A program made the translations under genes and the position numbers. Shown piece by piece: positions 4,589-41,389 of a stretch of 64,000 nucleotides of DNA. The stretch is from Treponemataceae bacterium (GTDB lineage Bacteria; Spirochaetota; Spirochaetia; Treponematales; Rectinemataceae), in NCBI GenBank assembly GCA_963678065.2, contig CAXXVZ010000005.1, forward strand, positions 800,001 through 864,000, read 5' to 3'. Within the stretch, counting starts at the first letter, position 1. Each line of letters starts with the position of its first letter. The notes beneath the pieces were generated by a model. That model made no database searches. It saw nothing but the letters and a program-made list of their open reading frames with translations, and had not been told where the DNA came from.

Positions 4589-4726
4589 GTTAGCTACAGT
4601 CGTGTTCTTCAGCGCGCTTTGATTTTCGGACTGGATGTCCGAAAATCAAATCAGTGACATCTTGCGCGCCTCTTACTCTTCTCTTAACCCTTATTTCTTT
4701 CTTCTCTTTACACGATTGTAGCTAAC
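4589..4726. other. Gene-less structured mini-cassette, family B (1 copy)
   Basis: 17-bp terminal IR, GCGCGC stem, perfect 14-bp hairpin tttgattttcggac-tggat-gtccgaaaatcaaa, pyrimidine tract. Confidence 0.88.
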
Positions 4727-4852
4727 GTTCTGCCTGTTTGCGACGATGGCGTGAGCATCGGCGAACGCCATTGTGCCTGAGCGGAATGAGCGTTAGCGAG
4801 TGCAGCGAATGGCCGAAGAGGGAGCTTGCGACCGATGAGCGTGAACAGCGCT

Positions 4853-4986
4853 GTTAGTTGCAGTCGTGACCTTCGAGCGCGCTTGGATGGGGAGACTTGT
4901 CTCCTCATCCAATACTCTATCTTGCGCGCGTTCTTCTCTTCCTCTTCTCTTAACCCTTATTTTTTTCTTTCACGATTGCAACTAAC
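4853..4986. repeat. Gene-less structured mini-cassette, family A (1 of 18)
   Basis: gttagttgcagtcgtga...tcacgattgcaactaac with an internal ttggatggggagac/gtctccYcatccaa hairpin. Confidence 0.92.
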
Positions 4987-5543
4987 GTTCGCCTGCCTAC
5001 GACGTTGTGGCGAGCATCGGCGAGCCACAATGTGCCTGAATGGAACGAGCGTGAGCGAGTGCAATGAAGGCCGAAGAAGGAGCCGACAGGCGACTGATGA
5101 GCGTGGGCAGTGCTGTTATATGCTGTACGCCGCCATCTTCAACCTTTTCCATTTTTCTTTCTCTTCACTGCTTCATACGTTCCTTTTTTTGGGTTTCCTA
5201 TTGTTTTTATTGATCTATTCAATACTCGCAAAGCTATTTTTTTACCATTTCAAAATCATTTTTTTGCCGTACATATTTGCTACTATACCTAAGGACATTT
5301 TACATGCCATGCTTCAACTTCATTATGCCATTACGATTATACTGAGATCGTATTCCTAACCATGACAAAATGGAATATTTTGAGTATGCATATTTTTTCT
5401 ATTCCACAATTCTTATTCATGGACTTATGATTCACTATTCTGAACCTCTTATTTTTTGTCAGTACCCCAGATTCACCGTTACTGCATTTATTCCCGTACT
5501 ATGATACTTTTTATTAATGACGGTACAATGGTAATTGTTCCCT

Positions 5544-5879
5544 CTATACCTTGTTTCGTTTCACTTTTTTGGGCTTCGGTTCGGGTAATTCATTGGCGGT
5601 TATCAGTATCAAATCTCGTATCCATTCCCTATCGTCAAATTTGTCTTTTATCAGAAAACTCATTCGTGCTCCTACATATGCAGGAGCTTCCGTTACATCC
5701 CCAATATAGGATCTCCCTTTTTCGGTAGGTTTTACATACAGTTGATTATCACAGATAAGGGCTACTACTTTACCATTACAATACAGTGCATATTCTCCAA
5801 ACATTTTTCGGTAGGTAATTGTCCCAGCACTTTCTATTTGATCAACAATATACTCAACAAAGTCTTGATCAGATGACAT
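5544..5879 (-). CDS. TfoX/Sxy N-terminal domain protein
   Basis: RKMFGEYALY..GKVVALICDNQLYVK motif. Confidence 0.9.
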   Translation of the reverse strand: MSSDQDFVEYIVDQIESAGTITYRKMFGEYALYCNGKVVALICDNQLYVKPTEKGRSYIGDVTEAPAYVGARMSFLIKDKFDDREWIRDLILITANELPEPKPKKVKRNKV

Positions 5880-6110
5880 TGGTATCCTCTCTTTTCTTTG
5901 GCGGCGTATTGCATATAACGTTTCCGGCCTGCGACGTTTGCGACCGCATCGGCGGGCCGCAAATGTGCCTGAATGGAACGAGCGTATGCGAGTGCAATGA
6001 AGGCCGAAGAAGGAGCCAAAGGCGACTGATGAGCGTGGGCCGTGTTGTTATCTGATGTTTGAACGCGCTCTCCTCTTCAATCTTCCCATTTTTAAAACCT
6101 TTCTTACTCT

Positions 6111-6692
6111 TCATTTCTTCATTTCAAAATTTTCAATTCCTATCTTCATTTCCTTATTTTTAACCCATTCTTCTTCCAAAATTCCAAATACCATATCGTC
6201 TTTCCACTCATTTTGTATCAAAATACTTTTTACAAAATATCCCTCATTTCTGAACCCAAGATTTTTCAATAATCGTATTGATGCTGTATTGTCTGGATCT
6301 ACTGACGCAATAACCCTGTGTTTTTTCAATGATATAAATATATAGTCAATTAGTGCTTGAACGGATTCTTTCCCAAATCCCTTATGGTGATCCTTTTTCC
6401 CTATTGTATAACCAATTTCACATTGTTGATTTTCTGGATCTATAAAATGAATCCCACTATCTCCAATAATTGTATCTTCATAATAGATCCCAAGCTGAAA
6501 CCAGGTATTTCCAACATTGAAGAATAATGTGTTATTTTTAATGAATGATTCCACATCATCAATGGATGTAGGTTTGAAGGACTGAAACTCCATAATTGAA
6601 GGGTCAGATCGGTATTCAAACATTTTCAGAGAATCTTCCAGAACTATATCTTTCAAAACCAAACGGTTAGTCCGAATGATAATATAACTCAT
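6111..6692 (-). CDS. GNAT N-acetyltransferase (RimJ/RimL type), copy 2
   Basis: Close paralog of 2601-3146. Confidence 0.9.
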   Translation of the reverse strand: MSYIIIRTNRLVLKDIVLEDSLKMFEYRSDPSIMEFQSFKPTSIDDVESFIKNNTLFFNVGNTWFQLGIYYEDTIIGDSGIHFIDPENQQCEIGYTIGKKDHHKGFGKESVQALIDYIFISLKKHRVIASVDPDNTASIRLLKNLGFRNEGYFVKSILIQNEWKDDMVFGILEEEWVKNKEMKIGIENFEMKK

Positions 6693-6910
6693 TGTCTTTT
6701 CCCTGATCTCGCGCGTTCAAATTTCAGATAACGTTTGCCTGCCTACGACGTTTTGGCCCGCATCGGCGGGACAAAATGTGCCTGAGCGGAATGAGCGCAA
6801 GCGAGTGAAGCGAATGGCCGAAGAAGGAGCCGAAGGCGACTGATGAGCGCGGGCAGCGCTGTTAGCCGAAGTACCTTGGTTTCAAGGTAGTATGCCGGTT
6901 TTTAACGTTA

Positions 6911-9214
6911 TTAATTTGTTAAATCCAGCAAGGATAAGTCATATTTTGCTAATGCACTATAATAACTCATTCTTCCACTTTTTCTATATTCAGTATCATC
7001 TTCAAAAATATCATCATATATTTGCATATAAATATTTTTCTCTTTTTTGACACCAATTTTTTGATAATAATCAGCATAATATTTTACACGAATTAAATAT
7101 TCACTACCTAATTCATTATAGATATTACCAAGATCTTGAATATTTATTGCCAATACAGCAAGATTTGATAAATTTGTTTTTCCATCTGTAGCACTTTCAA
7201 GCAAATATTCTTTAAACTGTTTCGTATTACTTGTTTTACTATAATATGGTTCCATATTTTTAATAACTTTCCCTAAGTTTGTTTTAAAATCTTTAGCGAT
7301 ATTTATCCTAATTAAAATATCATCATATGCTTGCCTAGATAATGAGATATGCTCAATTGTTTTTGATTTCGATATTTCATTAAAAACTAACTTCGCTAAA
7401 CTACCAATTGCTGCAGGTAAAAATTGTACTAATACATCATTTTGAGTATACGCCTTATCAGCATTATTAAAAAGAGGGAGAATTAAACTTGTAGCGCTGC
7501 CAATTAGCAATGAAACATCACCTAATCTATCGTAATTATTTCTTATTAATTCACGAGGCTCTTTCAAAAGTCATGAGATGAACGAATTTTAATGAAAAGC
7601 GGGGACAGAACCTGTATGATGATGTTGCAACACAAACGTCACCAGGAGGAGCCCCCGCTGATGAAAACCATACCAGAAATACTGGGCGGAGCGCAAATAC
7701 TTTTGCCGATTTCCTACGATATCCAGCGATGTTTCGAAGAATATCTCACCGACGAGCATCGCTTTTTTATCGCCCTGCTCAGAGTCATTGAAGATGCTCA
7801 GCCACGGATTACATCACCATGTGCACGGACTGGCCGTCCTCCACATCGGAACGAACCGATCATGCGGGCGTTTTTCGCCCGAACGGTATTCCACATAGCG
7901 ACAGTCACGGACCTTAGGAACAGGCTGATCAACGATCCGAATCTGCGGAGGATATGCGGCTTCACCTCCGTTCCAAGCTCTGCGACCTTTTCGCGTCGCT
8001 ACGCGGAGTTTTCAAAAAAGACTCCGCTGATTCAGACTTTGAATACCATGGTGAAGGATTGTCATGACGGCCATATCGTCGGACACATAAATCGGGATGC
8101 GACGGAGATACGAGCACGAGAAAAACCTGTACCTGCCAAACGTGAAGCTGTTTCTTCCGTGACACCGCAACGGAAACGAGGTCGTCCCCGAAAAGGAGAA
8201 GTTCGGCCTGTGAAGGAGCCGACACAGATAGAAAAGCAAGTCGGCCAAAGCGTCAGGAAATCCTTGTCAGAACTATCCAAAGACTGTGCATGGGGATGCA
8301 AGAAGAACAGCCAGGGGAATAGGGAAACATGGAAAGGATACAAGTTGCACCTTGATGTCAGCGACACAGGATTCCCTATTTCAGCAGTCGTAACCGGCGC
8401 CAATGTTCATGATTCGCAAGTAGCGATTCCTCTGGAAAAGATAACAGAGAAAAAGGTCCGACATCTGTATTCAGTCATGGACGCTGCATACGATGCGGAT
8501 CCCATCGCGACCTATATCCAGGGACGTGGGCGTGTTCCGCTGATTGATCGGAATACGCGTCGTGGGACGGAACGGGAACCATTTTCGCCGTCACAGAAGG
8601 AGCGGTACACAATCAGGACAACGGTTGAACGTGCAAACTCGCATTTGAAGGATTGGCTCATACCGGGTCAGATATTTGTACGGGGATTTGAGAAAGTATC
8701 ATTCCTGCTCATGTGCGGGGTAGTGGTTCTGGCGGCCGTCAAGGCTTTGCAGTACTTCATCCTTCCCGAACTGCAGAAATCGTAACCGGGCAATCCGGCA
8801 GAACCGGATTTTGTAGGGGTAGTCCATCTTTTGCACTGAAAAGAGAGCCCTTTTTACTGCACATGTAATTTTTACTGTGCAAAAACGAAGCTTCAGTTAC
8901 AATAACTCGCTTTTTTACAAAGCGGATTACGAAGTTTTGAAAAAGCCTCTCACTATTAAATATATTGAGCTCTTTATTTAGAGCTATTTCGTAAGAGCCA
9001 TATCGAAAACCATCGTAAACTCCAACGAGGTAATTATTAGTATTAGTTATTAAATCTTTTAATAACTCAATTTTTTCTCCTTTCGCTTTTGCATTTCTTG
9101 CCAAATCGAACCACTCACTATACGATTGTACATTTGAAAATTTTATTTTTGGAAATGTTGTTGGAATAACATTTTCAGAAACTATTGTAAAACAAAATAA
9201 GAACAACATAGTAG
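6911..9214 (-). pseudogene. Hypothetical exported protein, interrupted by an IS5/IS1182-like element and 5'-truncated by IS1634
   Basis: Removing 7555-8949 and one TCAC rejoins ...IFNSE/LIRNNYD... in frame. The remaining N-terminus abuts the IS1634 end. Confidence 0.75.
7555..8949 (+). mobile_element. IS5/IS1182-like DDE IS (1395 bp), copy 1; transposase 7592-8785
   Basis: TIR GAGGCTCTTTCAAAA / TTTTGAAAAAGCCTC and TSD TCAC. Motifs DAT, GYKLHL, DAAYD and RTTVER. The exact family is uncertain. Confidence 0.9.
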
Positions 9215-10966
9215 CCTGAAATCCCGGGAATAATTTAACCTACAAGACATTTTACGCATAGAACAGAAATAATTCCCACTATTATCACGACATACATAGT
9301 GACAGGTCCTTCAGGTGTAGGCATAATGTGTTTAACCTACACAAAGAGGGACTGCCATGTCATGCATAGTCCACCAGAAAGTCGGTCAGCACACCTACCT
9401 GTATGAGTCAGTCTCCTACCGTGATGAACGGGGTAAGCCACGGGCGCATCGGGTTCCCATCGGAAAAGTAGACCCGGAAACGGGACAGGAAATCTACAAG
9501 CAGGAATACGTGTCGCGTATGGCAGCAGCGGGAACTCCGATCGCTGTCTATTCGCCACCACCGACTTTCACAGAACAGGATGTGCAAAAATCCTCAGTCC
9601 TGCATACCGGCATGGCCCTTTTGCTGAAGCAGTGTGCACAACAAACCGGACTTTCCGAAGTTTTGCGCGATGCATTCCCCCAGACACACGAACTTTTATT
9701 TGCACGTGCCTGCCACATCGTCTGCCGCGGGGAACCGTCCGCATATTGCGAGCAGTGGCTGGAAGACACCGACCTCACGGTTCCCGCCCGGCTCAGCTCG
9801 CAACGGATTTCGGATCTTGTGTCTTCACTGCCAGCATCCCAGGTTCTGCGGTTTTATCAGGCGTGGGTCGCCACGCGCAGTGAACAGGAATATCTGGCAC
9901 TGGATATCACCAGCATCTCGTCGTATTCACAGCTCATCGACGATGTCGACTGGGGGTACAATCGCGATCAGGAAAAACTGCCACAGGTGAATATCTGTCT
10001 GCTCACCGGGGAAGAGTCACACCTTCCCGTGCGCATGGTTGTCTATGACGGAAGCATCAAGGACGTGAACACCCTGAGAACGACGATGGCCGGTCTCACC
10101 GACGGTATCGGATCAAAGGTTCGCATCGTCACCGACAAGGGCTTCACCAGCAAACGGAATATCGAAGCCATGCTCGCGTTCGGGAATGTGGAGTTCATCA
10201 TGGCCCTCCCGTTCACGCTCACCTTTGCGGAAAACCAGGTGCGCAGCGAGAAAAAGGATATCGCGGATATCCGGAATACCATGATGAGCGGCAGCGATGT
10301 CTTCTATGGCGTGACCAAGCGGCGTACATGGGGCACAACGGAGCTGTATACCCACATCTGCTATAACGAGGTGAAAGCGACTCGTGAACGGAACCATCTG
10401 TATGGCTATGTCGCGAACCTGCGATCGCAGGCGCTGTGCGACCCGTGGAACGAGAAACTGAAAGCCGAGTTTGCAGAATATCTCATCATCAGAAAATCGG
10501 AGAAGCGAGAGGATGGAGTCACGGTCAGTATCCGCCAGGATGTGGTGGACGAGCATCTGGCTCATGCCGGGTGGATGGTGTGCGTGAGCAATTCCGTGGA
10601 TACCGTGCAGGAAGCGATCAGGATCTACCGGGCAAAGGATGTGGTGGAAAAAAGCTTTCTGCGCACCAAAAACAGCCTGGGTATCAACCGGCTACGGGTA
10701 CATTCCCAGCAAGCGATGGATGGAATGATGCTGGTAGCCTTCATCGCATTGATTCTCAACAGTCATATCCATCGGATCATGCTGGAGAAAAACCTGTACC
10801 GGAACATGAGCATGACGGATCTGGTGAAGACGATGGAGAAACTCAAGGTCATGGTCATCGGTGATACGCGAATCAATTATCCTGCTACCAAGAAGCAAAA
10901 AGAGATCGCAGAGGCTTTCGGTCTCACGAGCCTTTCTGTAGGTTAAATAATGGGCGGGATTTTAGG
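9215..10966 (+). mobile_element. IS1634-family IS; transposase 9357-10946
   Basis: 529 aa with YLYES.SYRD N-terminus, LDITS, GYNRD, TDKGF and VEKSF..K. TIR CCTGAAATCCCG / CGGGATTTTAGG. No TSD. Confidence 0.88.
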
Positions 10967-11291
10967 TATATAGTATTCTTTCATCTTTCTCTTTAAAATT
11001 CCTAAAACCCTTATTCTTCAATTCTTCTACCATTTTTCCAAGATCTTTTACCATAAAGCACATATGCTGTATTCCCATTTCATTCTTTTCATGGTTTACG
11101 TTTTCATATCCTGCTTTAGGAGTTTGTAATTCAATAATGATATCATTGAGTTTCAGCCATGTAGTATACTCTCTTCCATGAAATCCTTTCGTTTCATGTA
11201 GAATCATAAACCCCAATAATCCACAATAGAATTCTATACTCTCATTATATCTATCAGTTTCTATACACACATGATGAAACGATTGAATCAT
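10967..11291 (-). pseudogene. VOC/glyoxalase family protein, 3'-truncated by IS1634
   Basis: HHVCI, FY..LLGF, IIELQ and GIQHMCF motifs. The final strand (DPDG..E) is missing. Confidence 0.8.
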
Positions 11292-11891
11292 CCAGTATTC
11301 CTTATTCAAACCCAGTATTTCAGAAAAGCACACCATTTCAAACAGATCATTTCAGTAGTACAGTGGCTACAACATTTTTTTGCAGCAACTATTCAAAAAT
11401 CACTATGTTATTTTTTACATAGTACCACCATATAAAAATCAGCTACCAGGTACTCCAGAGAGCCGCCCCCAAAATATTGCACCTAACGTTCGCCTGCCTA
11501 CGACGTTGTGGCGAGCATCGGCGAGCCACAATGTGCCTGAGCGGAATGAGCGTTAGCGAGTGCAGCGATGGCCGAAGAAGGAGCCGCAGGCGACTGATGA
11601 GCGTGGGCAGTGCTGTTATCTGCTTTTCGCCCCCTCTTCAAACCTTTTTACCTTCTCTTTATCTTCCTCTTTTCTTCACCTTTTGTACATTTGTTTTCAT
11701 CTCTATTCCGTATATGATTTTATATCTATTCCCACAGTATTTAAAATATTATTCATAATATTTTTGTTATTATCTATAAATTCCATATTCCATTTTCTAC
11801 AACTCTTTTCAATTTTCTTTACCTTTGGAAATTTCTTATTATTTTACTTTATTTCTATTTAATATCAATAATTATTACCTATAGTATCTAT

Positions 11892-11920
11892 TTGACAAAC
11901 AGTTCTACTATATTTATACT
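11892..11920 (+). promoter_or_regulatory. Sigma70-type promoter of brnTA
   Basis: TTGACA-17-TATACT directly upstream of the toxin gene. Confidence 0.8.
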
Positions 11921-11926
11921 ATAATT

Positions 11927-12217
11927 ATGATGCCACTACGGTTTTCATGGGATGAATCAAAAAATACGATCAACATCTCAAAACACAACATTCCATTTGA
12001 TGAAGCCCAATCCGTATTCCATGATCCATATGCCAGAATCATTCCTGATCCAGAACATTCAGATCAAGAAGATCGTTTCATACTGTTAGGTTTGAGTCAG
12101 AAGCTCAGACTCTTGCTTGTCTGTCATTGTTATCGTTCTGATGACGACATCATCAGGATCATTTCTGCCAGAAAAGCATCAAAGACGGAATCAGTATATT
12201 ATGGAGGACCGCTATGA
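11927..12217 (+). CDS. brnT: BrnT family toxin (inverted in cassette)
   Basis: FSWDESKN..N..KH.I.F, EDRF and IRIISARKA motifs. Confidence 0.92.
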   Translation: MMPLRFSWDESKNTINISKHNIPFDEAQSVFHDPYARIIPDPEHSDQEDRFILLGLSQKLRLLLVCHCYRSDDDIIRIISARKASKTESVYYGGPL

Positions 12218-12423
12218 AAACTGAATACGATTTTTCCCAATCAAAACCCAATCCGTATATAAAGAAACTCAGAAAACAGATCACCATCAGAATTGATGTA
12301 GAGACGATTGAGTATTTCAAGAAGCAGGCTGAAACCACAGGGATTCCCTATCAAAACCTGATAAATCTCTATCTGTATGATTGTGCTTCGAAATCTAAAA
12401 AACTTGATCTTGCCTGGAAGTGA
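12214..12423 (+). CDS. brnA: BrnA family antitoxin
   Basis: EYDFS and ITIRID...IEYFK..A...GIPYQ..IN motifs; 4-bp overlap with brnT. Confidence 0.9.
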   Translation: MKTEYDFSQSKPNPYIKKLRKQITIRIDVETIEYFKKQAETTGIPYQNLINLYLYDCASKSKKLDLAWK

Positions 12424-12800
12424 TTTTCTTCCTCTCGGGGGCGAATTGCAGATAACGTTTTGTGCCTCTGACGTTTCGGACCGCATCGGCGGGCCGAAAT
12501 GTGCCTGAGTGAAGTGAGCGAATGCGAGCGCAACGATGGCCGAAGAGCCCTGAAAGGGCGATGAGCAGGGGCACGGTGTTAGGCGCTTTTGCACGGCGCT
12601 TATTACTCTTCAATATTTTGATACTAATTCTTATTTCTTTATCTTTATTATATTTATTAATTTTCTTATGCTTAAATACTTAGGATCTTTTATGTTTTTA
12701 TTCATATATTTTTATTTATGCTGGAAAATAACTACAGATCATATCGTGAAAAATCCACTTGAATTCTCTCTATCAGAATTTCCATTTCCAAAAGTATTCA

Positions 12801-13220
12801 TTATTCTCCAACAACCCATGTTTTTGCTTCTTCTGGATCCATAAAATACCTGATTACAATATTTTTTGTTATTCCTGAACTAGAAAACTTATTTTTTAAT
12901 TTCAGTTTATTGATGAACGATACTCCTACAAAAGCACATTTCTTTATTTTCCCCGATATTGAGATTAATAGATTTGACATCTCATGAGAAATATTTTTTG
13001 AGATAGTTGTTGAGTATAAATCAATCCAAATACCTGAAACGATGTTCTGAGATAGTGTAAATTCTTTTTCCAACTTTATAAGTTCCATTACCTTCATTTC
13101 ATCAGTATGGAAATTACCTAATTTCAGAGCATGAAGAGCTCCATGCTTATAGTAATACGGAAAATTAGAACCGCTTGGTGATTTCATCGAATATTCTCTT
13201 TTGTCATGTATATTCTTCAT
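12801..13220 (-). CDS. Hypothetical protein, possibly STAS/SEC14 (SpoIIAA-like)
   Basis: Fills the cassette; C-terminal IRYF.DPEEAKTW. Confidence 0.55.
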   Translation of the reverse strand: MKNIHDKREYSMKSPSGSNFPYYYKHGALHALKLGNFHTDEMKVMELIKLEKEFTLSQNIVSGIWIDLYSTTISKNISHEMSNLLISISGKIKKCAFVGVSFINKLKLKNKFSSSGITKNIVIRYFMDPEEAKTWVVGE

Positions 13221-13391
13221 TTCTTAAAGAATTTTCTCTATCTCGCGCCGTGCTATTGCGCCTAACGTTCTGCCTGTTTGCGACGATGGCGTGAGCATCG
13301 GCGAACGCCATTGTGCCTGAGCGGAATGAGCGATAGCGAGTGCAGCGATGGCCGAAGAGGGAGCTTGCGACCGATGAGCGTGAACAGCGCT

Positions 13392-13524
13392 GTTAGTTGC
13401 AGTCGTGACCTTCGAGCGCGCTTGGATGGGGAGACTTGTCTCCCCGTCCAATACTATATCTTGCGCGCGTTCTTCTCTTCCTCTTCTCTTACCCCTATTT
13501 TTTTCTTTCACGATTGCAACTAAC
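13392..13524. repeat. Mini-cassette family A
   Basis: Near-identical to 4853-4986. Confidence 0.92.
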
Positions 13525-13651
13525 GTTCGCCTGCCTACGACGTTGTGGCGAGCATCGGCGAGCCACAATGTGCCTGAGCGGAATGAGCGACAGCGAGTGC
13601 AGCGATGGCCGAAGAAGGAGCTGAAGGCGACTGATGAGCGTGGGCAGTGCT

Positions 13652-14264
13652 GTTATGTGCTGTGTTTTTGGGGCACACCCTGTTTCTTCTCTTCATTTCT
13701 ATAATTCTTATTCCTTTACTCTTAACCCTTTATCTTTGCATTTTAATACTTTATTCAGATACATACGCACTTTATTTCTCTATACCATAGTTATTTATTT
13801 ACTTTGACAGTGCCTCTTTTCTTATATCCTACTACCTATATATTTTATCCTTAAATTCATATTTACGTTTTCGACTATTATAGTTCAGTACATGTTTTTC
13901 GATGTTTCCAATTCAAAAATCTACCATTTTTACTCATAAACCATATAGTAATAATGCCACTACTCAATATGTTTCTATACTTCAAAAATCACATTTTTTA
14001 GATTCAAATAGTTCATGAGAAAAACAGCAGCATCTTCGAAAGGCGTTTTGAAATCTATGATAATCCTATACCCAGAAATCCTATTTTTTATCTATACCAT
14101 TTTTGTACTGCATATACTACCAACACTGAATATAGCACTGATCCACAATTACTACAGAATTGTGTATAAACCCAATATCAGAAGATTCTATTTTTGAATG
14201 CTCTGACGTCATTCAGAATCATATGGTTTCGCACGAGATCCGCCCCAAAAACATTGCAACTAAC
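13652..14264. other. Long gene-less cassette (~610 bp), copy 1
   Basis: AT-rich with no credible ORF. Near-identical to 34736-35348 and homologous to 41517-42141. Confidence 0.8.
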
Positions 14265-14388
14265 GTTCTGCCTGTTTGCGACGATGGCGTGAGCATCGGC
14301 GAACGCCATTGTGCCTGAGCGGAATGAGCAGAGCGAGTGCAGCGATGGCCGAAGAGGGAGCCTGCGACCGATGAGCGTGAACAGCGCT

Positions 14389-15293
14389 GTTAGTTGCAGT
14401 CGTGACCTTCGAGCGCGCTTGGATGGGGAGACTTGTCTCTCCATCCAATACTCTATCTTGCGCGCGTTCTTCTCTTCCTCTTCTCTTACCTCTATTTTTT
14501 TCTTTCACGATTGCAACTAACGTTTGTGCCTCTGACGTTTCGGACCGCATCGGCGGGACGAAATGTGCCTGAGCGGAATGAGCGAATGCGAGTGTAGCGA
14601 TGGCCGAAGAGGGAGCCTGCGACCGATGAGCGTGAACAGCGCTGTTAGTTGCAGTCGTGACCTTCGAGCGCGCTTGGATGGGGAGACTTGTCTCCTCATC
14701 CAATACTCTATCTTGCGCGCGTTCTTCTCTTCCTCTTCTCTTACCCTTATTTTTTTCTTTCACGATTGCAACTAACGTTCTGCCTGTTTGCGACGATGGC
14801 GTGAGCATCGGCGAACGCCATTGTGCCTGAGCGGAATGAGCGTATGCGAGTGCAGCGAAGGCCGAAGAGGGAGCCTGCGACCGATGAGCGTGAACAGCGC
14901 TGTTAGTTGCAGTCGTGACCTTCGAGCGCGCTTGGATGGGGAGACTTGTCTCCCCATCCAATACTCTATCTTGCGCGCGTTCTTCTCTTCCTCTTCTCTC
15001 TTACCCTTATTTTTTTCTTTCACGATTGCAACTAACGTTCTGCCTGTTTGCGACGATGGCGTGAGCATCGGCGAACGCCATTGTGCCTGAGCGGAATGAG
15101 CGATAGCGAGTGCAGCGATGGCCGAAGAGGGAGCTTGCGACCGATGAGCGTGAACAGCGCTGTTAGTTGCAGTCGTGACCTTCGAGCGCGCTTGGATGGG
15201 GAGACTTGTCTCCCCATCCAATACTCTATCTTGCGCGCGTTCTTCTCTTCCTCTTCTCTTACCCTTATTTTTTCTTTCACGATTGCAACTAAC
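14389..15293. repeat. Four tandem family A mini-cassettes
   Basis: 14389-14521, 14644-14776, 14902-15036 and 15162-15293, separated by attC sites. Confidence 0.93.
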
Positions 15294-15471
15294 GTTCTGC
15301 CTGTTTACGACGATGACGCGAGCATCGGCGAGCGCCATTGTGCCTGAGCGGAATGAGCAAAGCGAGTGCAGCGATGGCCGAGGAGTCGCCAGCTTCGCTG
15401 GCGGCGACGAGCAGGGGCACGGTGTTAGATGATGTTGGGCACCCTCTTCATATATATTACTTTGCTTTTTC

Positions 15472-16510: not shown

Positions 16511-16637
16511 GTATGCCTGCCTACGACGTTTTGGCCCGCATCGGCGGGACAAAATGTGTCTGAGCGAAATGAGCGAATGCGAGTGGAGCGAAGACCGAAG
16601 AAGGAGCCGAAGGCGACTGATGAGCGCGGGCAGCGCT

Positions 16638-32271: not shown

Positions 32272-32662
32272 GTTAGTTGCAGTCGTGACCTTCGAGCGCG
32301 CTTGGATGGGGAGACTTGTCTCTCCATCCAATACTCTATCTTGCGCGCGTTCTTCTCTTCCTCTTTTCTTACCCTTATTTTTTCTTTCACGATTGCAACT
32401 AACGTTCTGCCTGTTTGCGACGATGGCGCGAGCATCGGCGAGCGCCATTGTGCCTGAGCGGAATGAGCGATAGCGAGTGCAGCGATGGCCGAAGAGGGAG
32501 CCTGCGACCGATGAGCGTGAACAGCGCTGTTAGTTGCAGTCGTGACCTTCAAGCGCGCTTGGATGGGGAGACTTGTCTCCTCATCCAATACTATATCTTG
32601 CGCGCGTTCTTCTCTTTCTCTTTTCTTAACCCTTATTTTTCTCTTTCACGATTGCAACTAAC
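32272..32662. repeat. Two tandem family A mini-cassettes
   Basis: 32272-32403 and 32529-32662. Confidence 0.92.
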
Positions 32663-32868
32663 GTTCGCCTGCCTACGACGTTGTGGCGAGCATCGGCGAG
32701 CCACAATGTGCCTGAGCGGAATGAGCGTCAGCGAGTGCAGCGATGGCCGAAGAAGGAGCCGAAAGGCGACTGATGAGCGTGGGCAGTGCTGTTAGCCGCT
32801 GCCACCTTCGTGTCATCCCAATACTATGTACTTGCTTATAGCAAGCTTTATGTGTATCATTCGTCTAT

Positions 32869-33303
32869 ATGAGTAGTATCAATGCGGTAAAAGACGTCAG
32901 AACATTTAACCGTTTCTATACCAACATCATTGGCGTTATTGACCGTCATATCCTCGATAGTCCGTATTCATTGACTGAAGCAAGAATTCTCTATGAAATC
33001 TATAATAACCATACTATGACAGCTCGAAAAATAAAGAAGTATCTCCACATTGATGAAGGTTATCTGAGTCATGCACTAGAAAAAATGATCAAGAATGGCT
33101 TACTCATACGACAAAAATCCAAAGATGATAGAAGACTCAATCTCTTATCCTTAACTCAGAAGGGTGAAACTGAGTTTTTAGCACTAAGTTTGCGTTCTGA
33201 ACATGCAATTGCATCCCTTATCAAAGATCTGACCGGTAATGAACTAGAAAGGCTCACAGCTGCAATGCGGGAAATTACGTTTTTACTCACCAAAGAGGGG
33301 TAA
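32869..33303 (+). CDS. MarR family regulator (inverted cassette)
   Basis: RTFNRFYT, SLTEARILYE and DDRR...LSLTQKG motifs. Confidence 0.9.
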   Translation: MSSINAVKDVRTFNRFYTNIIGVIDRHILDSPYSLTEARILYEIYNNHTMTARKIKKYLHIDEGYLSHALEKMIKNGLLIRQKSKDDRRLNLLSLTQKGETEFLALSLRSEHAIASLIKDLTGNELERLTAAMREITFLLTKEG

Positions 33304-33307
33304 TCTT

Positions 33308-33805
33308 ATGGTAACACTGGATGATATCACGATTCGAAATGAATTAGTGCCCGGCGACATTGGTTATATAATCTATCTGCATGGACTGCTGTATAGTACA
33401 GAAAATGCTTATGGACTTCAATTTGAAGCATATGTAACCGAAGGTTTGTTAGAATTTGTAAAAAGATACGATCCCTCTATAGATCGTGTATGGGTATGTG
33501 AACACAATACCCATATTGTAGGATTTATTTTGCTCATGCATCGCGATAACAATGCAGCTCAACTACGCTATTTCCTTATCCATCCGCAGTATCGGGGTAT
33601 TGGCTTAGGGAAAAGGCTTATTGAGTTGTATATGCAATTCTTACATCACTGTAACTACAGTACATCATATCTTTGGACAACCACTGAGCAGAAAACCGCT
33701 ATATCCTTATATAGGAGATATGGATTTTGTTTAACCGAGGAAAAAAAGTCATCGTTATTCGGGAAACCTTTACGTGAACAACGTTTTGACTTGGTTATTC
33801 GGTAG
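33308..33805 (+). CDS. GNAT N-acetyltransferase coupled to MarR
   Basis: PGDIG, AQLRYFL..P.YRGIGLG and LY...GF motifs. Confidence 0.9.
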   Translation: MVTLDDITIRNELVPGDIGYIIYLHGLLYSTENAYGLQFEAYVTEGLLEFVKRYDPSIDRVWVCEHNTHIVGFILLMHRDNNAAQLRYFLIHPQYRGIGLGKRLIELYMQFLHHCNYSTSYLWTTTEQKTAISLYRRYGFCLTEEKKSSLFGKPLREQRFDLVIR

Positions 33806-33961
33806 AGTTTGGGGGCTCGAAGGTGGTTGCGGCTAACGTTCTGCCTGTTTGCGACGATGGCGCGAGCATCGGCGAGCGCCATTGTGCCTGAGCGGAATGA
33901 GCAGAGCGAGTGCAGCGATGGCCGAAGAGGGAGCTTGCGACCGATGAGCGTGAACAGCGCT

Positions 33962-34608
33962 GTTAGTTGCAGTCGTGACCTTCGAGCGCGCTTGGATGGG
34001 GAGACTTGTCTCTCCATCCAATACTCTATCTTGCGCGCGTTCTTCTCTTCTTCTTCTCTTACCCTTATTTTTTTCTTTCACGATTGCAACTAACGTTCTG
34101 CCTGTTTGCGACGATGGCGTGAGCATCGGCGAACGCCATTGTGCCTGAGCGGAATGAGCGAATGCGAGTGTAGCGATGGCCGAAGAGGGAGCCTGCGACC
34201 GATGAGCGTGAACAGCGCTGTTAGTTGCAGTCGTGACCTTCGAGCGCGCTTGGATGGGGAGACTTGTCTCCTCATCCAATACTATATCTTGCGCGCGTTC
34301 TTCTCTTCCTCTTCTCTTACCCTTATTTTTTTCTTTCACGATTGCAACTAACGTTCTGCCTGTTTGCGACGATGGCGTGAGCATCGGCGAACGCCATTGT
34401 GCCTGAGCGGAATGAGCAAAGCGAGTGTAGCGATGGCCGAAGAGGGAGCTTGCGACCGATGAGCGTGAACAGCGCTGTTAGTTGCAGTCGTGACCTTCGA
34501 GCGCGCTTGGATGGGGAGACTTGTCTCCTCATCCAATACTCTATCTTGCGCGCGTTCTTCTCTTCCTCTTCTCTTACCCTTATTTTTTCTTTCACGATTG
34601 CAACTAAC
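33962..34608. repeat. Three tandem family A mini-cassettes
   Basis: 33962-34094, 34220-34352 and 34477-34608. Confidence 0.93.
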
Positions 34609-34735: not shown

Positions 34736-35348
34736 GTTATGTGCTGTGTTTTTGGGGCACACCCTGTTTCTTCTCTTCATTTCTATAATTCTTATTCCTT
34801 TACTCTTAACCCTTTATCTTTGCATTTTAATACTTTATTCAGATACATACGCACTTTATTTCTCTATACCATAGTTATTTATTTACTTTGACAGTGCCTC
34901 TTTTCTTATATCCTACTACCTATATATTTTATCCTTAAATTCATATTTACGTTTTCGACTATTATAGTTCAGTACATGTTTTTCGATGTTTCCAATTCAA
35001 AAATCTACCATTTTTACTCATAAACCATATAGTAATAATGCCACTACTCAATATGTTTCTATACTTCAAAAATCACATTTTTTAGATTCAAATAGTTCAT
35101 GAGAAAAACAGCAGCATCTTCGAAAGGCGTTTTGAAATCTATGATAATCCTATACCCAGAAATCCTATTTTTTATCTATACCATTTTTGTACTGCATATA
35201 CTACCAACACTGAATATAGCACTGATCCACAATTACTACAGAATTGTGTATAAACCCAATATCAGAAGATTCTATTTTTGAATGCTCTGACGTCATTCAG
35301 AATCATATAGTTTCGCACGAGATCCGCCCCAAAAACATTGCACATAAC
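34736..35348. other. Long gene-less cassette, copy 2
   Basis: Near-identical to 13652-14264, with the same attC variant on its left. Confidence 0.8.
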
Positions 35349-35430
35349 GTTTGCCTGCCTACGACGTTGTGGCGAGCATCGGCGAGCCACAATGTGCCTG
35401 AGCGGAACGAGCGCATGCGAGTGCAGCAAT

Positions 35431-38400
35431 TGGAAATGGCAAGTAGTTTTCCCCACCATATGGCAACTAGGAATCCCCACCCGGTAGAGGGTTATTCCTC
35501 CTTCTTTGCAGAGATGCGATATGACTCCCCTGACAGGGAGAAAATCTTTGCGTGATGCATGAGACGATCCAACAGGGCTGCGGTCATAACCTCGTCGCCC
35601 ATGAGTTCTGACCAAGAGTTCAGGTCCTTGTTGCTCGTCACGACGATAGAGGCACGTTCATAGAGATCCGAGACGAAGGTGAAAAAGGGCTCTTCGCTGT
35701 TTCATGTGGGTAACTGCCCCAGTTTACCGGCGACAATGTAGGTCATGATCTTGAGATTTTTGATAGTTCGGAATCCTCTGGCTCTGGTCTTTGCTGACTG
35801 AATCAGACTATTCAACGATTCAAGAAGCCCATTTGTCACTCCGGATGTAAGCCACCGAACGACTCCATTCCAGTGTCGTTTGAGCATCGCAGCAAAATTG
35901 ATGATTGGGGTAAGCTGTGATCGTGTTGCCCATACTCTCCATTTTTTAAGTTCTTCTATGGCTCGAGAAGCCGAGAATTCGAAAAGTCCCTTGAAAATGT
36001 TCATCATTCGCCATGCTCGCCCTGTTTTTAACTGTAATCCTGACAAGGTGTTGAGACGGGCCAAATTCTTAACCGACAGATTGTAGGGGTTGCTCAACCA
36101 GACATATTTCGAACCTCTGAGTACCGTTTCCATCGTTGATTCTTCTTTCCGCACGTCGTTGACTGCTTCACCCAGAAGCTTCATGACATGAAACCGATCA
36201 AACGTGAGAGCAGCCTGGGGAAGATGCTCTTCGATCCCGGACATGAACGCCGGCGACATATCGGTACAGACCGTCCGTGATAGCAGTTTTCGAGCCTCCA
36301 TGGGCTTCCAGATGCTCTGTAAAGGCTTTTATAGTGGATGCATCCTTGCCTTCGGTCACATATATGGCTTTCCCTGTATCGAGATCGGCCACAACGGTGA
36401 TGTATGAGTGTCCGCGTTTGGCTGCTGTTTCGTCGATTCCGATTCGTGTGGTTTTCGATAAATCTTGTGTAGCCACGTCTTCGGAAACATAATGGTCCAT
36501 AATTCGCCACACTCGCGTATCGGTGGTAGCTGTCAGTCTGGAAACTGCCTTGACGCTCATTTCCTTGACCATGATCATCATGAGGGCTTCGTACAGCAGG
36601 GTAAATCCCGATCCTTTACGCGCCCACGGGATATCAATCAGATGAACGCCATGCTCAGGACAGTCTATCCGCGGAACTCGTGCATGCAGATAGGCTTCAT
36701 GCTGGAAAAAATTGAGGTGACGCCATGTTTTGGGCATCGTATCGTAGGCTGTACCCTTGTAATCGCAGGAAAAACACGGAAAACGACTCCCGGGCTTGAA
36801 CCCAAGCTGTATATCAAGCCGATGTTCTGTTGGTTTGAACTCTATGTTCTCAACAATCCAGGGTTCAGATAATCCAAGCGCAAGGGCGAATAGTTCTACG
36901 TCTTTCATGCTGCTCATCCTACCATGCTTCCTTGGTTACCCACACGATTCGTTGAAGAGCCTGAAAAAGAGATTGGCTTCCTTGCGCTCGATAGGAGTGT
37001 AGCCAATCTCATCAATGATCATGAGGTTGGCCTTCGCGAGCCGGCTTAGCCTGAACTGAGCGCTGCGTGCGGCGTCAGAGCGCACGAGGAGCTTCACCAG
37101 TGAGGTCATGCGCTCGTAACAAACCGAATAGCCTTTGCGTACGGCCACATGGCCAAGAGCGATTGCGAGATGGGTCTTTCCGAGTCCAGGAGGCCCGAAG
37201 AGCAGAAGGTTCTCGTGACGGTCTATCCAAGAGCACTCGGTGAGCTCAGAGAGGTCTCGTTTTCCAATTCCTGCTACTCGGCCGAGTTTGAAATCCTCGA
37301 GGCGCTTTACGACGGGAAAATGGGCCATGGCGAGGCCTCGTTTGAGGCGCCTGTCGCCGCGATCCTGTAGTTCGACGTCCACGAGGGTCTCGAGGAAGGC
37401 AAGGCATGTCAGTCCCCCGCTTTCAGCTTGTTTAAGAAGCTCAGGAAGCCGTGACGACGCGCCACGAAGCCGCAGGGACTCCAGTTTACGAGCGGATTCT
37501 GCGAGGGCGCTCATTCTTCGTGCCTCTGCGTATCGACGAGCGCGTCGAGGAATCGCTGATACTCGCTGACCGAGCGTGTGGCAACTAGTGGAAGGTCTCT
37601 GGTTTGATGAAGGCCGCGGTACGGCGAAGGCGCCACTGCGGGCACTGGCGTCGTGCTGTTGACCGCGTCGATGAGATCCTGGGCGCTTGCAAGTCCTCTA
37701 TCCAGGCAGAACTTCAATGCAAGCACGAGTTTCTCTCTGTCGATGTTGCGCTTGAGAAGCTTCCGAAGTCGGCCAGCGTGCTCCCGGAAGTAGCGTCGAT
37801 ACTCGGTATAGATACCATCGACGAAGCTCCCCCACTCGGGAAGATCATCTACTGCGGCGACAAGATCCGCGCGGAGCGTTTCCTGGGATCCTTCGCGATC
37901 GCGATAGTGAGCCTTGTCCAGCACCGTTCCGCCGGGTGTTGCCGCTTCGCGATGCGCCGCGATCTGGATACCCGTCTTCGTATCGAATACCAGGATGAGT
38001 CCGTCCTTGCGCTCGATAGTGACCTCGTTGAGCCGGTACGAGTTCGGCACCGAGTACCTGGTCGCGGCGATCGATATAAGGCTTTTCTGATCCACGTTAC
38101 GGCTCTCTCGGCAGCCCGATGCGGTGTCCGCGCGGAAAATAGACGCTCGGAGCGCCCGCAAGACGGGTTTCTCGTGCGCTTCGAAGTCCGCGAGCGGCAT
38201 GAGACGCGTGGCTTGGCTCAGTTTTGCGTTCACTCGTAAGAGCCATTTGCGCATGCCTGCCTGGAGTTCGTCGAAGGTCGCGAAGCTGCGGCTCGAGAAA
38301 TAGCTCGTTTTGACGTATTTGACCGCATTCTCGACCTTTCCTTTCGATTCCGGATCGGCCGCACGGCAGACACGGAGCCGCAGTCCCTGTTCTGCGACGA

Positions 38401-39154
38401 ACTCAGCAAAGGCTTTTGTCGTCGTGAGGTCGCCAAGGTTTTCCGTCACAATCATTGTCCGGTCCTGATCCATGACGAGTTCTTCGGTGATACCGCCAAA
38501 AAACTCGAAGGCGTCCAGGAGATGGCCGATCACATCCTCGCTGGTAAAGGGCCTGGATTGGGCCGCTACGTAGCGGTAACGGCTTCGTGAGAGTACTACG
38601 ACAACAAACCAAGCCTTTCCGATGTTCGTCGTCTCTACGCCGAAATCAATCTGAGCCTGCTTGCCGTAGGCCAGAGGCTCCACAGGACGATATTCCCGAC
38701 ACAGGCCCACCTTAATCGCACCGGATGCCTTGAGATACGTCAGGTAGTTCCGCAACGTACGGTCCGAGCCTGGAAGCTCTCCGTATTTCTCGCTTAAGTA
38801 GTCGTGGACGGACGATGAGTAGACCATTCTGCCTTCGTGGTTCTTTTTAAAAATCTCGAGGATTTCGTCCTTGTAGACCGAAAAAGCCTTACCGCGTTCT
38901 GCCATTCGCTCGAGATACCGTAAGAATTGGTCATTGTCCATGCGCAGGTACTTTCTCACGGTCTTGCGGTCCTTGCCAAGTTTTACCGCTAGTGCGCTGA
39001 CTGTGAGTCCTTGCCTGTGCCCTGTTCGTACGATGTTGTAGTCCTTCATGGTACTCATTTCTTGTGCCGCATGCTCGCAAGCATAGCGGCCAAGGCCCCT
39101 GTGGGTGGGGAATCCTATTTGCCAACTGCTGGGGAATTCAGTTTACCATTTCCA
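35431..39154 (-). mobile_element. IS21 copy 2 inside attC; istA 37511-39058 intact, istB disrupted by nested ISL3
   Basis: Length 3724 = 2442 + 1274 + 8. Left flank is the same as copy 1, right flank is a different attC position, and there is no TSD. Confidence 0.93.
35688..36961 (-). mobile_element. ISL3 copy 2 nested in istB
   Basis: Same ORFs as 3158-4431; 8-bp TSD TGAAAAAG. Confidence 0.93.
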
Positions 39155-39390
39155 GAGCGTATGCGAGTGCAATGAAGGCCGAAGAAGGAGCCGAAGGCGA
39201 CTGATGAGCGTGGGCAGTGCTGTTAGGCGACGTGTTGTTTTGCGTTTCTTCAAAATACACAATTACGTTGATACAGTTGTCAGATGTATTTTATCTACTG
39301 CTTTGCTGTTACCTAAAAATGGGGACTATATCATAAATGATTTCCTACTGATGTTTTAGTCTAATCAATGCTTGAAGTCATCTAAACATA

Positions 39391-39912
39391 CTATGCTGTA
39401 CAATAAGCTTCTTTTATTGACCTAATAGTTTTTAGTGCCCAGTCATAATGGCTGGATGTTGCTGATACTAGATATGCACCTAACGATGTTGTTCCTGTCC
39501 ATGCGTACTTTTTTTTAGTAAATAATTCATCATCACTATGTTTTTGTATTATTTCTATCATTTCTTTATGACTTTTCTTTATTAGCTTTATTGCTTCATT
39601 TAATTCTGTTCCTTTATACTTTTCATAAATTCTATGATTTAGGACAGGCAAGGTTTGCCAGGTAACATCTTCTGCCGGAATAGCTGGCTTCTTGCCGGAC
39701 ATTCCAATTTTATACCAATTCTTCATCATCGAATGCCATTCATGTAAATGACAAATCACATCAGCTATTGTCTTATCTCTATCATTGAGTTCATTATTTT
39801 CGTATGATTTAACTTGATATTCTTTGGGTAGCGATTCAATGAACACTAATAGTTTTGTAAGGTTTTCATCGCCAAGCGACAGTAGCTCTGCTTTGTTGGT
39901 TGGTCTAGGCAT
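39391..39912 (-). CDS. ClbS/DfsB (DUF1706) family four-helix bundle protein, copy 1
   Basis: MPRP..K.EL, RDK...DV..HL.EWH and SATSSHY.WA motifs. A 1-bp indel alters the last residues relative to copy 2. Confidence 0.85.
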   Translation of the reverse strand: MPRPTNKAELLSLGDENLTKLLVFIESLPKEYQVKSYENNELNDRDKTIADVICHLHEWHSMMKNWYKIGMSGKKPAIPAEDVTWQTLPVLNHRIYEKYKGTELNEAIKLIKKSHKEMIEIIQKHSDDELFTKKKYAWTGTTSLGAYLVSATSSHYDWALKTIRSIKEAYCTA

Positions 39913-40202
39913 GTAATTCTCCTAAATTAATTCGCGCCAAAGGCGTCCTGTTAACAGCATTTACCGTGATACATATAAACCTATTTGTATAAGTGGTAAA
40001 ACACTAAAATGGTAATCTCTGGAAGGATCGCGCAAAACAATATGTCGCCTAACGTTCGCCTGCCTACGACGTTGTGGCGAGCATCGGCGAGCCACAATGT
40101 GCCTGAATGGAACGAGCGTATGCGAGTGGAGTGAAGGCCGAAGAAGGAGCCGAAGGCGACTGATGAGCGTGGGCAGTGCTGTTAGGTGAAGTTGTTCAGG
40201 CA

Positions 40203-41072
40203 CTATCTCCCGTAATACTCAATTACTTCTCTCGCCCTTCTTGTAATGAACTCATTTTTATCTGTATTTCCGATTGATATTACCAAATCTTTAATCTGAC
40301 GCTCTATTTCCCACGTCGAATCTGGTTTCATTTTGCTTCTTAATAGATCCAACGCTTTCGTAATATGTACCGATTCCACCTTTTCCCGTTTCAAAAGCCA
40401 GAGTATTTCCAGATAATCTCCTTGATACATATTCGGAAATGTAAGCTTTTTTATAGTGGTATGGATAAACGATGTACTATCATGCGAACTGAAGCAAACA
40501 TCATGCAGTAAAATAAAGGCTATACACTGAGCACGTAGCTTTTTAGCATTTTCTGATCGTTTGTTCTCAGGAATAAAGGATAATCCCTTCAAGAGCTTCA
40601 CAATTCCCCAATAACAGGTATGTTTTCCATAGCAACTACGATTCGAACAATACGGAAAGGAAGAAGGAGTCTTGAAATCCCCATCATCAAATCGTTGGTA
40701 GTCTGCAAAAAAGTCTATGATGCTTGTAATAACAGATTCATTTTCAAAATGAAAATATGAATGCACATACAGCATATTCCCATTCAAGCACGGAATTGGG
40801 AAATGAGTTTTCCCCAAAGAGTAAATATTCACGGTTCGATCGAGAAAATGATTTGCTATCGTCTGCAAAGGTCTGATTAGGCTAGTTATTCTATAATCGC
40901 AGTGCATATCAGCTAACAGGATGAGCGTCCATAAGGTGGATTTATAATTGGGTACGTAATAATTCAACGCTGGGTAATGCGTATCCCTTTTATCCAGAAC
41001 GTTCCAACATCCATTTTCATCCTGCAATTCAAGTATCTTTGACGTAAGTGATTGTGCTAAATCTGTAGTCAT
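40203..41072 (-). CDS. Hypothetical protein, prenyltransferase/squalene-cyclase-repeat-like
   Basis: LQDENGCW and QRFDDG QW-like repeats; fills the cassette. Confidence 0.55.
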   Translation of the reverse strand: MTTDLAQSLTSKILELQDENGCWNVLDKRDTHYPALNYYVPNYKSTLWTLILLADMHCDYRITSLIRPLQTIANHFLDRTVNIYSLGKTHFPIPCLNGNMLYVHSYFHFENESVITSIIDFFADYQRFDDGDFKTPSSFPYCSNRSCYGKHTCYWGIVKLLKGLSFIPENKRSENAKKLRAQCIAFILLHDVCFSSHDSTSFIHTTIKKLTFPNMYQGDYLEILWLLKREKVESVHITKALDLLRSKMKPDSTWEIERQIKDLVISIGNTDKNEFITRRAREVIEYYGR

Positions 41073-41251
41073 ACTGATTTCCCACTAAACGAGTGTGTGG
41101 TGTGCCTGAACAATTTCACCTAACGTATGCCTGCCTGCGACGTTTTGGCCCGCATCGGCGGGACAAAATGTGCTTGAGCGGAACGAGCGAATGCGAGTGA
41201 AGTGAAAGCCGAAGAAGGAGCCGAAGGCGACTGATGAGCGGGGGCAGCGCT

Positions 41252-41389
41252 GTTATGTGCTGTCGCGATCTTGGTTTAGCGCACTGAAAGGTGGTGGCTG
41301 GATGCCACCACTTTTCAAGAAATATCCTGTGCGCGTTCTTTCTTTATCTTCTCTTCACTTTAGATACATTCCTCGCGATTGCACATAAC
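41252..41389. other. Mini-cassette family C (copy 2)
   Basis: Differs from 16638-16775 by compensatory A-T to G-C changes in the hairpin and in the R boxes. Confidence 0.88.

Follow-up and report, generated by a model that had tools for sequence, protein, structure and literature searches.

A recurrent gene-less mini-cassette with one common fold in a large cassette array of a Treponemataceae bacterium

Gene-less cassettes are common in large integrons, and whether they spread selfishly or serve in regulation is disputed. The question is raised by a stretch of 64,000 nucleotides from a Treponemataceae bacterium (genome G000, assembly GCA_963678065.2, contig CAXXVZ010000005.1, here C5, positions 800001-864000), called the window below. 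The window holds many copies of a mini-cassette in three families, A, B and C, which share one elaborate fold. What keeps up such a fold in elements that carry no protein-coding open reading frame (ORF)? The original prediction, made from the sequence of the window, held that the families are unrelated in sequence, that structure and not sequence is under selection, and that they form a class of their own. The explanation we favor, and regard as somewhat probable, is that a single gene-less cassette has diverged into the lineages A, B and C and is amplified by the integrase of the array as a passenger, because its bottom strand is predicted to fold recombination-ready.

The window (1-64000, array on the - strand) is the middle of an array of 177 attC-like sites at C5 754682-931442. 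The sites were located with a profile built from the window's 128-136-bp repeats, and all have a single strand orientation. Because they read TAAC...GTTA on + and the cargo genes lie mostly on -, the + strand of the window is the attC bottom strand and the - strand is the sense strand of the cassettes. The 176 inter-site segments comprise 54 short and 122 long ones, and the 117 long segments with intact ends fall into 88 types. Among 58 cargo proteins scanned are HEPN-nucleotidyltransferase, PIN, HicAB, BrnT and ParE toxin-antitoxin (TA) pairs, GNAT acetyltransferases and insertion sequence (IS) elements. The integrase gene, a tyrosine recombinase (C5 931898-933073, - strand; L001:1896-3077), lies about 68 kb past the right end of the window and points into the array. 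Its end is about 450 bp from the first cassette, and that first slot is itself a family A copy (C5 931439-931571). A homoserine kinase encoded next to the array has its closest named homologs in Spirochaetia, Treponema sp. and Rectinemataceae, in line with a spirochaete host.

A pattern search for the common layout found 18 A, 1 B and 2 C elements in the window and 56 in the genome (52 A in 33 haplotypes, 1 B and 3 C), all on C5 within the array. The predicted lengths of 132-138 bp, the 18 A copies (15 of them within 4589-41389) and the exact positions of B and C were recovered. All window copies are assigned to the - strand. Family B has one body (4589-4726, GTTA...TAAC on +) and its own attC-like site of 128 bp at 4465-4592. 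The reference A copy (4853-4986) has an A-specific attC-like variant at 4723-4856. Family C occurs at 16638-16775 and 41252-41389, with attC sites at 16507-16641 and 41121-41255. Single A copies lie at 13392-13524, 16379-16510 and 20676-20807 and, outside 4589-41389, at 51616-51748, 55771-55902 and 58433-58565. Tandem A cassettes form one run of four with their attC sites (14389-14521, 14644-14776, 14902-15036, 15162-15293; adjacent copies differ), two pairs (22423-22555 and 22680-22813; 32272-32403 and 32529-32662) and one run of three (33962-34094, 34220-34352, 34477-34608). The body is about 130 bp, and 1- and 2-nt indels segregate among the 52 A copies. ORFs of 70 or more codons span tandem attC-A units but vary from copy to copy.

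Folding recovered the predicted layout, and one fold serves for all three families. After a 17-bp outer stem and a 6-10-nt linker, a 6-bp GCGCRC/GYGCGC stem stacks on a hairpin of 14 bp. Next come a bulge of 11-13 nt with ATCYT at its end and a pyrimidine-rich tract of 38-40 nt. On the + strand of B these parts are the outer arms (4589-4605 and 4710-4726), the 6-bp stem (4612-4617/4664-4669), the hairpin (4618-4650, loop TGGAT at 4632-4636), the bulge (4651-4663) and the tract (4670-4709). In the reference A copy they lie at 4853-4869 and 4970-4986, 4877-4882/4924-4929, 4883-4912 (loop TT), 4913-4923 and 4930-4969, and in the first C copy at 16638-16654 and 16759-16775, 16665-16670/16715-16720, 16671-16703 (loop TGGAT, as in B), 16704-16714 and 16721-16758. 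All eight folds (four elements on two strands) were better than 200 of 200 shuffles, both as RNA (z -6.5 to -10.0) and as DNA (z -6.3 to -8.7).

Pairing is held while bases change. An alignment of three A, one B and two C copies has 99.1% of its 222 cells paired, with changes on both sides in 16/37 pairs. This level of covariation was reached by 0/500 shuffles, a statistic that the kinship of the copies inflates. The two C copies of the window differ at 7/138 positions, which include the predicted compensatory A-T to G-C pair in the hairpin, a second such pair in the outer stem and three unpaired positions. Among the 52 A copies, 4/74 paired and 15/58 unpaired columns vary (Fisher p=0.001). 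Body and attC polymorphisms combine in many ways among the copies, which suggests conversion or recombination between them.

The families are nevertheless not unrelated in sequence, as had been proposed. A and B are identical at 90/132 columns, A and C at 79/132, and B and C at 77/134 (57-68%). After the outer 12 bases were trimmed off, block shuffles that preserve composition scored as well in 0, 1 and 9 of 2000 cases for A-B, A-C and B-C, respectively. Between A and B the hairpin arms match at 8/14 bases, and 34 bases of the tract are 94% identical. A, B and C are therefore homologous, and the covariation rests on three lineages only.

The gene-bearing cassettes show where much of this design comes from. 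In 83/88 long types the two ends can pair over 16 nt or more (median 21). Their outer arm is conserved and reads TTAKNNGMAAT on the sense strand, and 73/83 have an A.C mismatch there (G.T on +) at a fixed position. Inside this arm are 78 distinct inner stems among the 83 types, nearly all Watson-Crick. AGA stands just inside the stem at the start in 45/83 and at the end in 50/83 (expected backgrounds 0.12 and 0.21), and on + these flanks are the ATCYT and TCTT motifs of the mini-cassettes. The same cassette ends occur in relatives G039, G046, G032, G005, G042, G092, G075 and G203. In relatives' cassettes AGA is found in 4/19 at the start and 10/19 at the end.

Even the inner hairpin has counterparts. 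Six perfect hairpins of at least 8 bp with an NGGAY loop exist in the genome: B, the three C, one in a GNAT cassette and one off the array. The GNAT cassette (C5 905452-906366) opens with stem, AAGAT and a 13-bp hairpin, exactly like the inner module of the mini-cassettes. With wobble pairs allowed, an NGGAY hairpin occurs at the cassette start on + in 2/83 long types and in none of 80 kb of bottom-strand interiors. On the - strand the start zone had 2 such hairpins and the interiors 11, which shows that they do occur by chance, and the counts are small. A cassette with a flavin reductase-like gene has, 10 nt away from the end stem at its start, a hairpin with an AGGAC loop (60927-60951, +), which is where the hairpin of the mini-cassettes sits. 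Among relatives' cassettes 3/19 have an NGGAY hairpin, as does one in contig L056. That the mini-cassettes are a class of their own is thus not supported: they share the outer helix, the fixed G.T and the AGA/TCT flanks with gene-bearing cassettes, and the NGGAY hairpin with a few of these. Peculiar to them are an inner 6-bp stem with the hairpin as its immediate continuation and a tract that separates this stem from the outer one.

This comparison also divides the claim that structure and not sequence is selected. Stems are more tightly conserved than loops, as the claim would have it. Templated copying, however, would also give 78 near-perfect Watson-Crick end stems, so covariation does not by itself show that a functional molecule is selected.

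Related hairpins were seen elsewhere. A C-AGGAY-G apex, which matches the B and C hairpin, is a dispersed repeat in G128 (13 hits, 0 in the control). Branched repeats with such apices, resembling repetitive extragenic palindromic (REP) elements, are found on L062 and L114-L116 (G128) and on L110-L113 (G032); they sit between genes, after tRNAs, and beside a gene that we take to be probably Rpn-like. A second kind of module, a GGA-loop hairpin on the bottom strand about 10 nt inside one or both ends, occurs in some gene cassettes (window 45065, 45970, 61162, 63033, 28665 and 476, and 9 more places in the array). Cassettes with it tend to lack a purine tail, and it is also present in L042, L045 and L055. 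L045:5996-6294 (G046) is a 297-bp gene-less-looking cassette that forms a long rod over nearly its whole length (about -127 kcal/mol as RNA on the bottom strand), in a design unlike that of A, B and C.

The distribution of the mini-cassettes suggests that they move as a unit with their own attC. Each is bounded by two attC-like sites with GTT/AAC cores, and the A-specific attC variant is present on 50/51 labelled A slots and 0/117 long slots. Mini-cassettes occupy 55/172 slots (12, 19, 15 and 9 per quarter of 43 slots); about 30% of the slots belong to A, whose neighbors vary. Mini-mini adjacencies number 19 against 17.3 expected, and family A placement is random along the array. No type of long cassette has more than 7 copies, against 52 for family A. 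Tandem slippage was rejected as the source of the A runs since 0/15 tandem neighbors are identical. Targeted placement before promoterless genes was also rejected, as it was not seen in the comparison of neighbors. G000 has a certain TA cassette only once, and on metagenome contig L036 an A-A pair flanks it on the opposite side; cassette order thus differs between samples. Family A is present in four DNA runs from two studies, the B body is partly covered in one run, and one of the runs may be the source sample.

Searches of other species turned up no homolog of the mini-cassettes. A strict motif pattern matched 0/100 relatives and no viral contigs, and gave 17 metagenome stretches, of which one is real (L036, family A) and 16 were judged chance by context and fold. 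A covariance model (R1) found no full-length match in 149 relatives with 22 candidates scored per genome; its single partial match, in a REP-like region of G128, extends over the hairpin and bulge alone. A generic short-cassette pattern, for which the control also rang, matched 6/400 genomes of the order and 10/350 of the phylum (overlapping samples), and 0/17 of the segments had the inner module. A BLAST search of plasmids with B gave five short low-complexity matches. Most relatives' contigs stop just after the integrase, so blanks there do not show absence.

The integrase is unusual. It scores 197 bits, in a split match, against a cut-off of 265 for integron integrases (TIGR02249). About 45 residues present in V. 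cholerae IntI4 are missing, its residues 284-291 face residues 172-225 of IntI4 (2a3v), and its alignment to XerA is unbroken. Judged from these alignments the IntI-specific insertion is absent from the array integrase. Residues 22-60 match the Pfam HARP domain PF07443 with 28.4 bits (cut-off 25), as do 4/13 members of the set. The N-terminal region is conserved in 13 aligned relatives, and its predicted model has a pLDDT (predicted local distance difference test) of 84.8. The best Foldseek match is 4o66 (E 0.014), and the HARP domain of SMARCAL1 and the UvsW and XPB domains rank first at modest scores. In the VIA comparison UvsW reached Z 6.8 (root-mean-square deviation 5.0, 66 aligned) and XPB Z 6.2, and the unrelated CASTOR1 ties at 6.7. 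A sequence search with the N-terminal region matched only itself. HARP domains are tied to annealing and fork binding in the available part of a review (PMC3409536), and this domain might act at cassette ends. Of 300 genomes of the order, 65 have integrase homologs at E<=1e-45, some of which are probably ordinary Xer proteins. A scan of the contig collection with the integrase gave 2 loci and no arrays. The stretch between integrase and first cassette (C5 ~931575-931890) has a C-rich, G-poor sense strand, the opposite of cassette tails, and two direct repeats in it that resemble the cassette outer arm are candidate attI binding sites.

Predicted folding of the array is biased to the bottom strand, as in canonical integrons, where the available part of PMC5027507 describes a bottom-strand excess of G.T in attC sites. 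In 36/37 A copies that carry a stem variant, the G.T form lies on +. Mini-loops of the form C-GNA-G or C-GNNA-G in 169 attC sites number 177 on + and 2 on -. Loops of the C-GNA-G kind are stable specifically in DNA. Circles of attC plus body folded 7-9 kcal/mol better on + in 5/5 tested, an advantage that the models attribute largely to the attC.

From these features the passenger explanation can be laid out as a proposed cycle. The mini-cassettes would take their construction from the self-pairing ends of the gene-bearing cassettes in the array. Excision would release the bottom (+) strand as a single-stranded circle, some 260 nt long, whose attC and body would fold as a two-ended rod. The integrase would bind the outer 11-bp arms and re-insert copies at attI. 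Short length and good folding would raise the excision rate, so that mini-cassettes would be copied more than gene cassettes; the accessible part of PMC5371416 gives excision rates of 1.17e-3 for 60-bp and 5.25e-5 for 3-kb cassettes with the bottom strand on the lagging template. A C-poor, structured sense strand would cost little in read-through transcription. Stems would be kept because the substrate is folded single-stranded DNA, by G.T-tolerant substitution and possibly by arm-to-arm templated repair. The mini-cassettes themselves would need to make no product.

Several observations weigh against this explanation. B (1 copy) and C (3 copies) have the fold without the amplification, and the inner 6-bp stem and displaced tract are without counterpart in long cassettes. 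The G.T bias stems from few events (three G.T sites and one opposite singleton in A, one G.T in C), and two of the A-family sites are C-to-T changes that deamination alone could explain. The bodies alone differ little as DNA, + being better by 1.3-2.5 kcal/mol in A and C and - by 0.4 in B. As RNA they fold 1.7-8.2 kcal/mol better on +, so an antisense RNA would show the same bias. When the linear array was folded without constraint, the own attC core had a pairing probability of 0.0 in 5/5 cases and was often paired across the cassette instead (0.96, 0.93, 0.69, 0.01 and 0.0); the fold could thus hinder rather than help excision. According to the same study of excision, in its accessible part, the length effect applied to bottom strands on the lagging-strand template, and there is no consistent drop below 1.5 kb and at most a modest one (PMC5371416). 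The position of dnaA (C5 1174321) suggests that the bottom strand here is on the leading-strand template; the GC skew is too flat to fix the direction of replication. Finally, excision, circle and rate are inferred, and the contigs of the four DNA runs are unsuited to reveal excision.

Other explanations start from the same fold. The mini-cassette might be kept by the host for control of transcription, its hairpin and the unpaired, C-rich and G-poor tract on + stopping antisense transcription by a Rho-dependent or weak intrinsic stop, with a purine-rich sense strand that lets array transcripts through; or it might carry a non-sigma70 promoter. The unpaired + bases are indeed pyrimidine at 43-49 of 55-59 positions with 2-5 G, the genome has a rho gene, and a pyrimidine-rich, G-poor composition is that of Rho loading sites. 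Promoter-active gene-less cassettes are reported, in the parts available, from Vibrio (10.1101/2023.11.21.568050) and oral Treponema (PMC6557892). No sigma70-type -35/-10 promoter was detected, however, in the three regions scanned, which include 5 A copies, one B and one C. A terminator scan made no call on the real stems (0, 0 and 1 calls, the single one off-structure in B and at chance level); it covered loops of 3-8 nt, so that a 6-bp stem closing a long insert is beyond its reach. Placement is random with no tie to a promoter-like motif of the neighbor (p=0.78 and 0.58, by a crude regular expression), runs of 3-4 copies would be redundant, and the tract is only about 40 nt. Control of transcription is rather unlikely on this balance. 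A structured small RNA (sRNA) cut from array transcripts, with its dose set by copy number and acting as a decoy, antitoxin-like or trans-acting regulator, would accord with the strong RNA fold on both strands and with stems conserved over loops. Next to the C hairpin change a G.T pair persists, which is what selection acting in steps by way of wobble pairs would leave, and a cassette-borne sRNA is known in Xanthomonas from the available part of 10.1101/2025.06.18.660453. Yet Rfam gave no match at gathering score in the whole window, and at E<=5 in 4400-17000 only two chance hits to snoRNA and lncRNA families outside the elements; the match to Rfam or a terminator that would have identified the elements was thus looked for, with no Rfam match on the elements and no terminator on their real stems. 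There is no promoter motif, parts of the fold also occur at the ends of protein-coding cassettes, and no target-like match beyond short chance ones was found elsewhere in the genome. We consider such an RNA decidedly improbable.

The mini-cassettes could also be by-products of cassette birth, in which the second end is written by templated fold-back copying; they would then have captured no gene, or be blanks that capture genes. The 78 inner stems among 83 types, with about 17 mismatches beyond two fixed positions outside the core, are what such writing would leave. The mini end stem looks split (11 plus 5-6 bp, then 6 bp and RRGAT) with a sum equal to the array median of 21 bp, and the GNAT cassette that begins like the inner module points the same way. 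Against it, 34/52 A copies retain a wobble or mismatch at central positions of the hairpin, so arm-to-arm copying is not frequent, and a genome pattern search found no long cassette that begins or ends with an A, B or C body. The reverse transcriptases inspected (3/6 hits and a copy of one) are group II intron proteins, none tied to mini-cassettes, and a link to a retron, a diversity-generating retroelement or a reverse transcriptase was rejected for those inspected. Birth of this kind is an unlikely source. Least probable of all, and very doubtful, is a sink that benefits the host, with abundant easy substrates soaking up integrase under stress and slowing the loss and reshuffling of useful cassettes. 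High and even occupancy and the presence of such cassettes in four other DNA runs would suit it, but in these data it is indistinguishable from plain selfish spread, and no such cassette was seen in the relatives' fragments examined.

A bolder version goes beyond the passenger explanation: the mini-cassettes would be blanks without cargo in a kind of integron that has been overlooked, and in its integrase a HARP-like fork-binding domain would have taken the place of the IntI insertion. At cassette ends this integrase might read single-/double-strand junctions, namely the TCT/ATCYT flanks together with the fixed G.T pair, of which mini-cassettes would present two in series. New cassettes might be born when DNA is captured and the second end is written around it by templated fold-back. 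We hold this to be unlikely as well. If true, the long-open question of cassette birth becomes testable with a 260-base substrate and one protein.

A natural minimal cassette in three diverged versions and 52 scored copies marks the constrained bases and pairs of cassette ends. It is a ready substrate set for an integrase type without the textbook single-strand-recognition insertion and with a domain that possibly binds forks. Should the family be no more than a passenger, it would still show that parasitic cassettes can make up a third of a superintegron, and that covariation in cassette arrays is no evidence for RNA unless the ends of ordinary cassettes are compared.

Other features of the array are recorded here. 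The commonest long type, with 7 copies, is a gene-less or decayed cassette of 505-623 bp with one common end stem (window 13653-14263, 20935-21439, 34737-35347 and 41518-42140). An IS21-like element lies repeatedly inside attC sites at a similar position and splits them (window 22810-25394 and 35345-39225, and at least 3 further places in the array). Genes on +, against the direction of the array, occur in cassettes at window 11616-12455 and 32792-33836 (BrnT toxin; MarR plus GNAT). A group II intron is present in two copies (G000:C5 ~773490-775410 and C3 ~118120-120040), both after the same short target starting with an attC-like TAAC core; the C5 copy splits a foreign-type site within the array, one that had escaped the attC profile. 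Outside the array, G000:C2 667433-667506 is half of an attC-like site, standing alone. The purine share of fourfold-degenerate sites on the sense strand climbs along the cassette, not the gene: 0.49, 0.61, 0.63 and 0.67 in 43 one-gene cassettes, and 0.51, 0.62, 0.66 and 0.71 over both genes of two-gene cassettes (n=19). The slope is positive in 56/64 array cases and flat in 4051 chromosomal and 76 AT-rich non-array ORFs; it was not reproduced in relatives (8/16 slopes positive). The gradient fits selection, or depurination of a single-stranded bottom strand, a process that can shift purine content in this way.

How does the mini-cassette compare with known systems? Literature consulted by title or abstract start (few subscription papers, no supplements) held nothing on this architecture, on cassette-end stems of about 20 bp or on a HARP domain in an integron integrase; how new the architecture is may depend on cassette sequences supplementary to PMC6557892 or PMC4909258. 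REP/REPIN repeats are likewise hairpins that vary in sequence but keep their apex, but all 56 A, B and C copies are in the array and bounded by attC, with only short chance matches outside. The sRNA-Xcc1 cassette of Xanthomonas is also a non-coding element in an integron cassette; according to the available part of its description (10.1101/2025.06.18.660453) it carries symE as well and its RNA is a demonstrated transcript, whereas the mini-cassettes are gene-less and known from sequence alone. Promoter-bearing gene-less cassettes of Vibrionaceae (10.1101/2023.11.21.568050) and oral Treponema (PMC6557892), as far as the accessible portions describe them, likewise have no ORF, have their own attC and can take the first slot. 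Unlike these, A, B and C have no sigma70-type promoter in the regions scanned and are placed at random.

The array resembles a canonical integron in its tyrosine recombinase beside a TAAC...GTTA array, its bottom-strand G.T bias and its cargo of TA pairs, GNATs and IS elements. The integrase is transcribed toward the array, as in the Treponema integrons of PMC3607928 and PMC4889954 in the parts available. It differs from a canonical integron in that the integrase is below the cut-off, is without the IntI insertion and carries a possibly HARP-like domain at its N-terminus, whereas IntI has its additional domain; attC complementarity there lies in a 7-bp core, in the accessible part of PMC5027507, against ends of about 20 bp here. 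The closest likeness is to the paralogous non-coding cassettes of Vibrio (Boucher et al. 2006, PMC1382264), which in the available part of that paper are gene-less, highly paralogous, lineage-restricted and conserved along their length. V. vulnificus has 45 and 34 copies of one such family, and the authors weigh selfish against beneficial readings as well as gene conversion (PMC1382264). No fold is described for them in that part, and the comparison is by description only (PMC1382264). The mini-cassettes differ in being about 130 bp long and almost all stems plus one tract, in an array with complementary cassette ends of about 20 bp and an integrase without the IntI insertion. Amplified gene-less cassettes are thus already known from Vibrio, and what is new here is this architecture.

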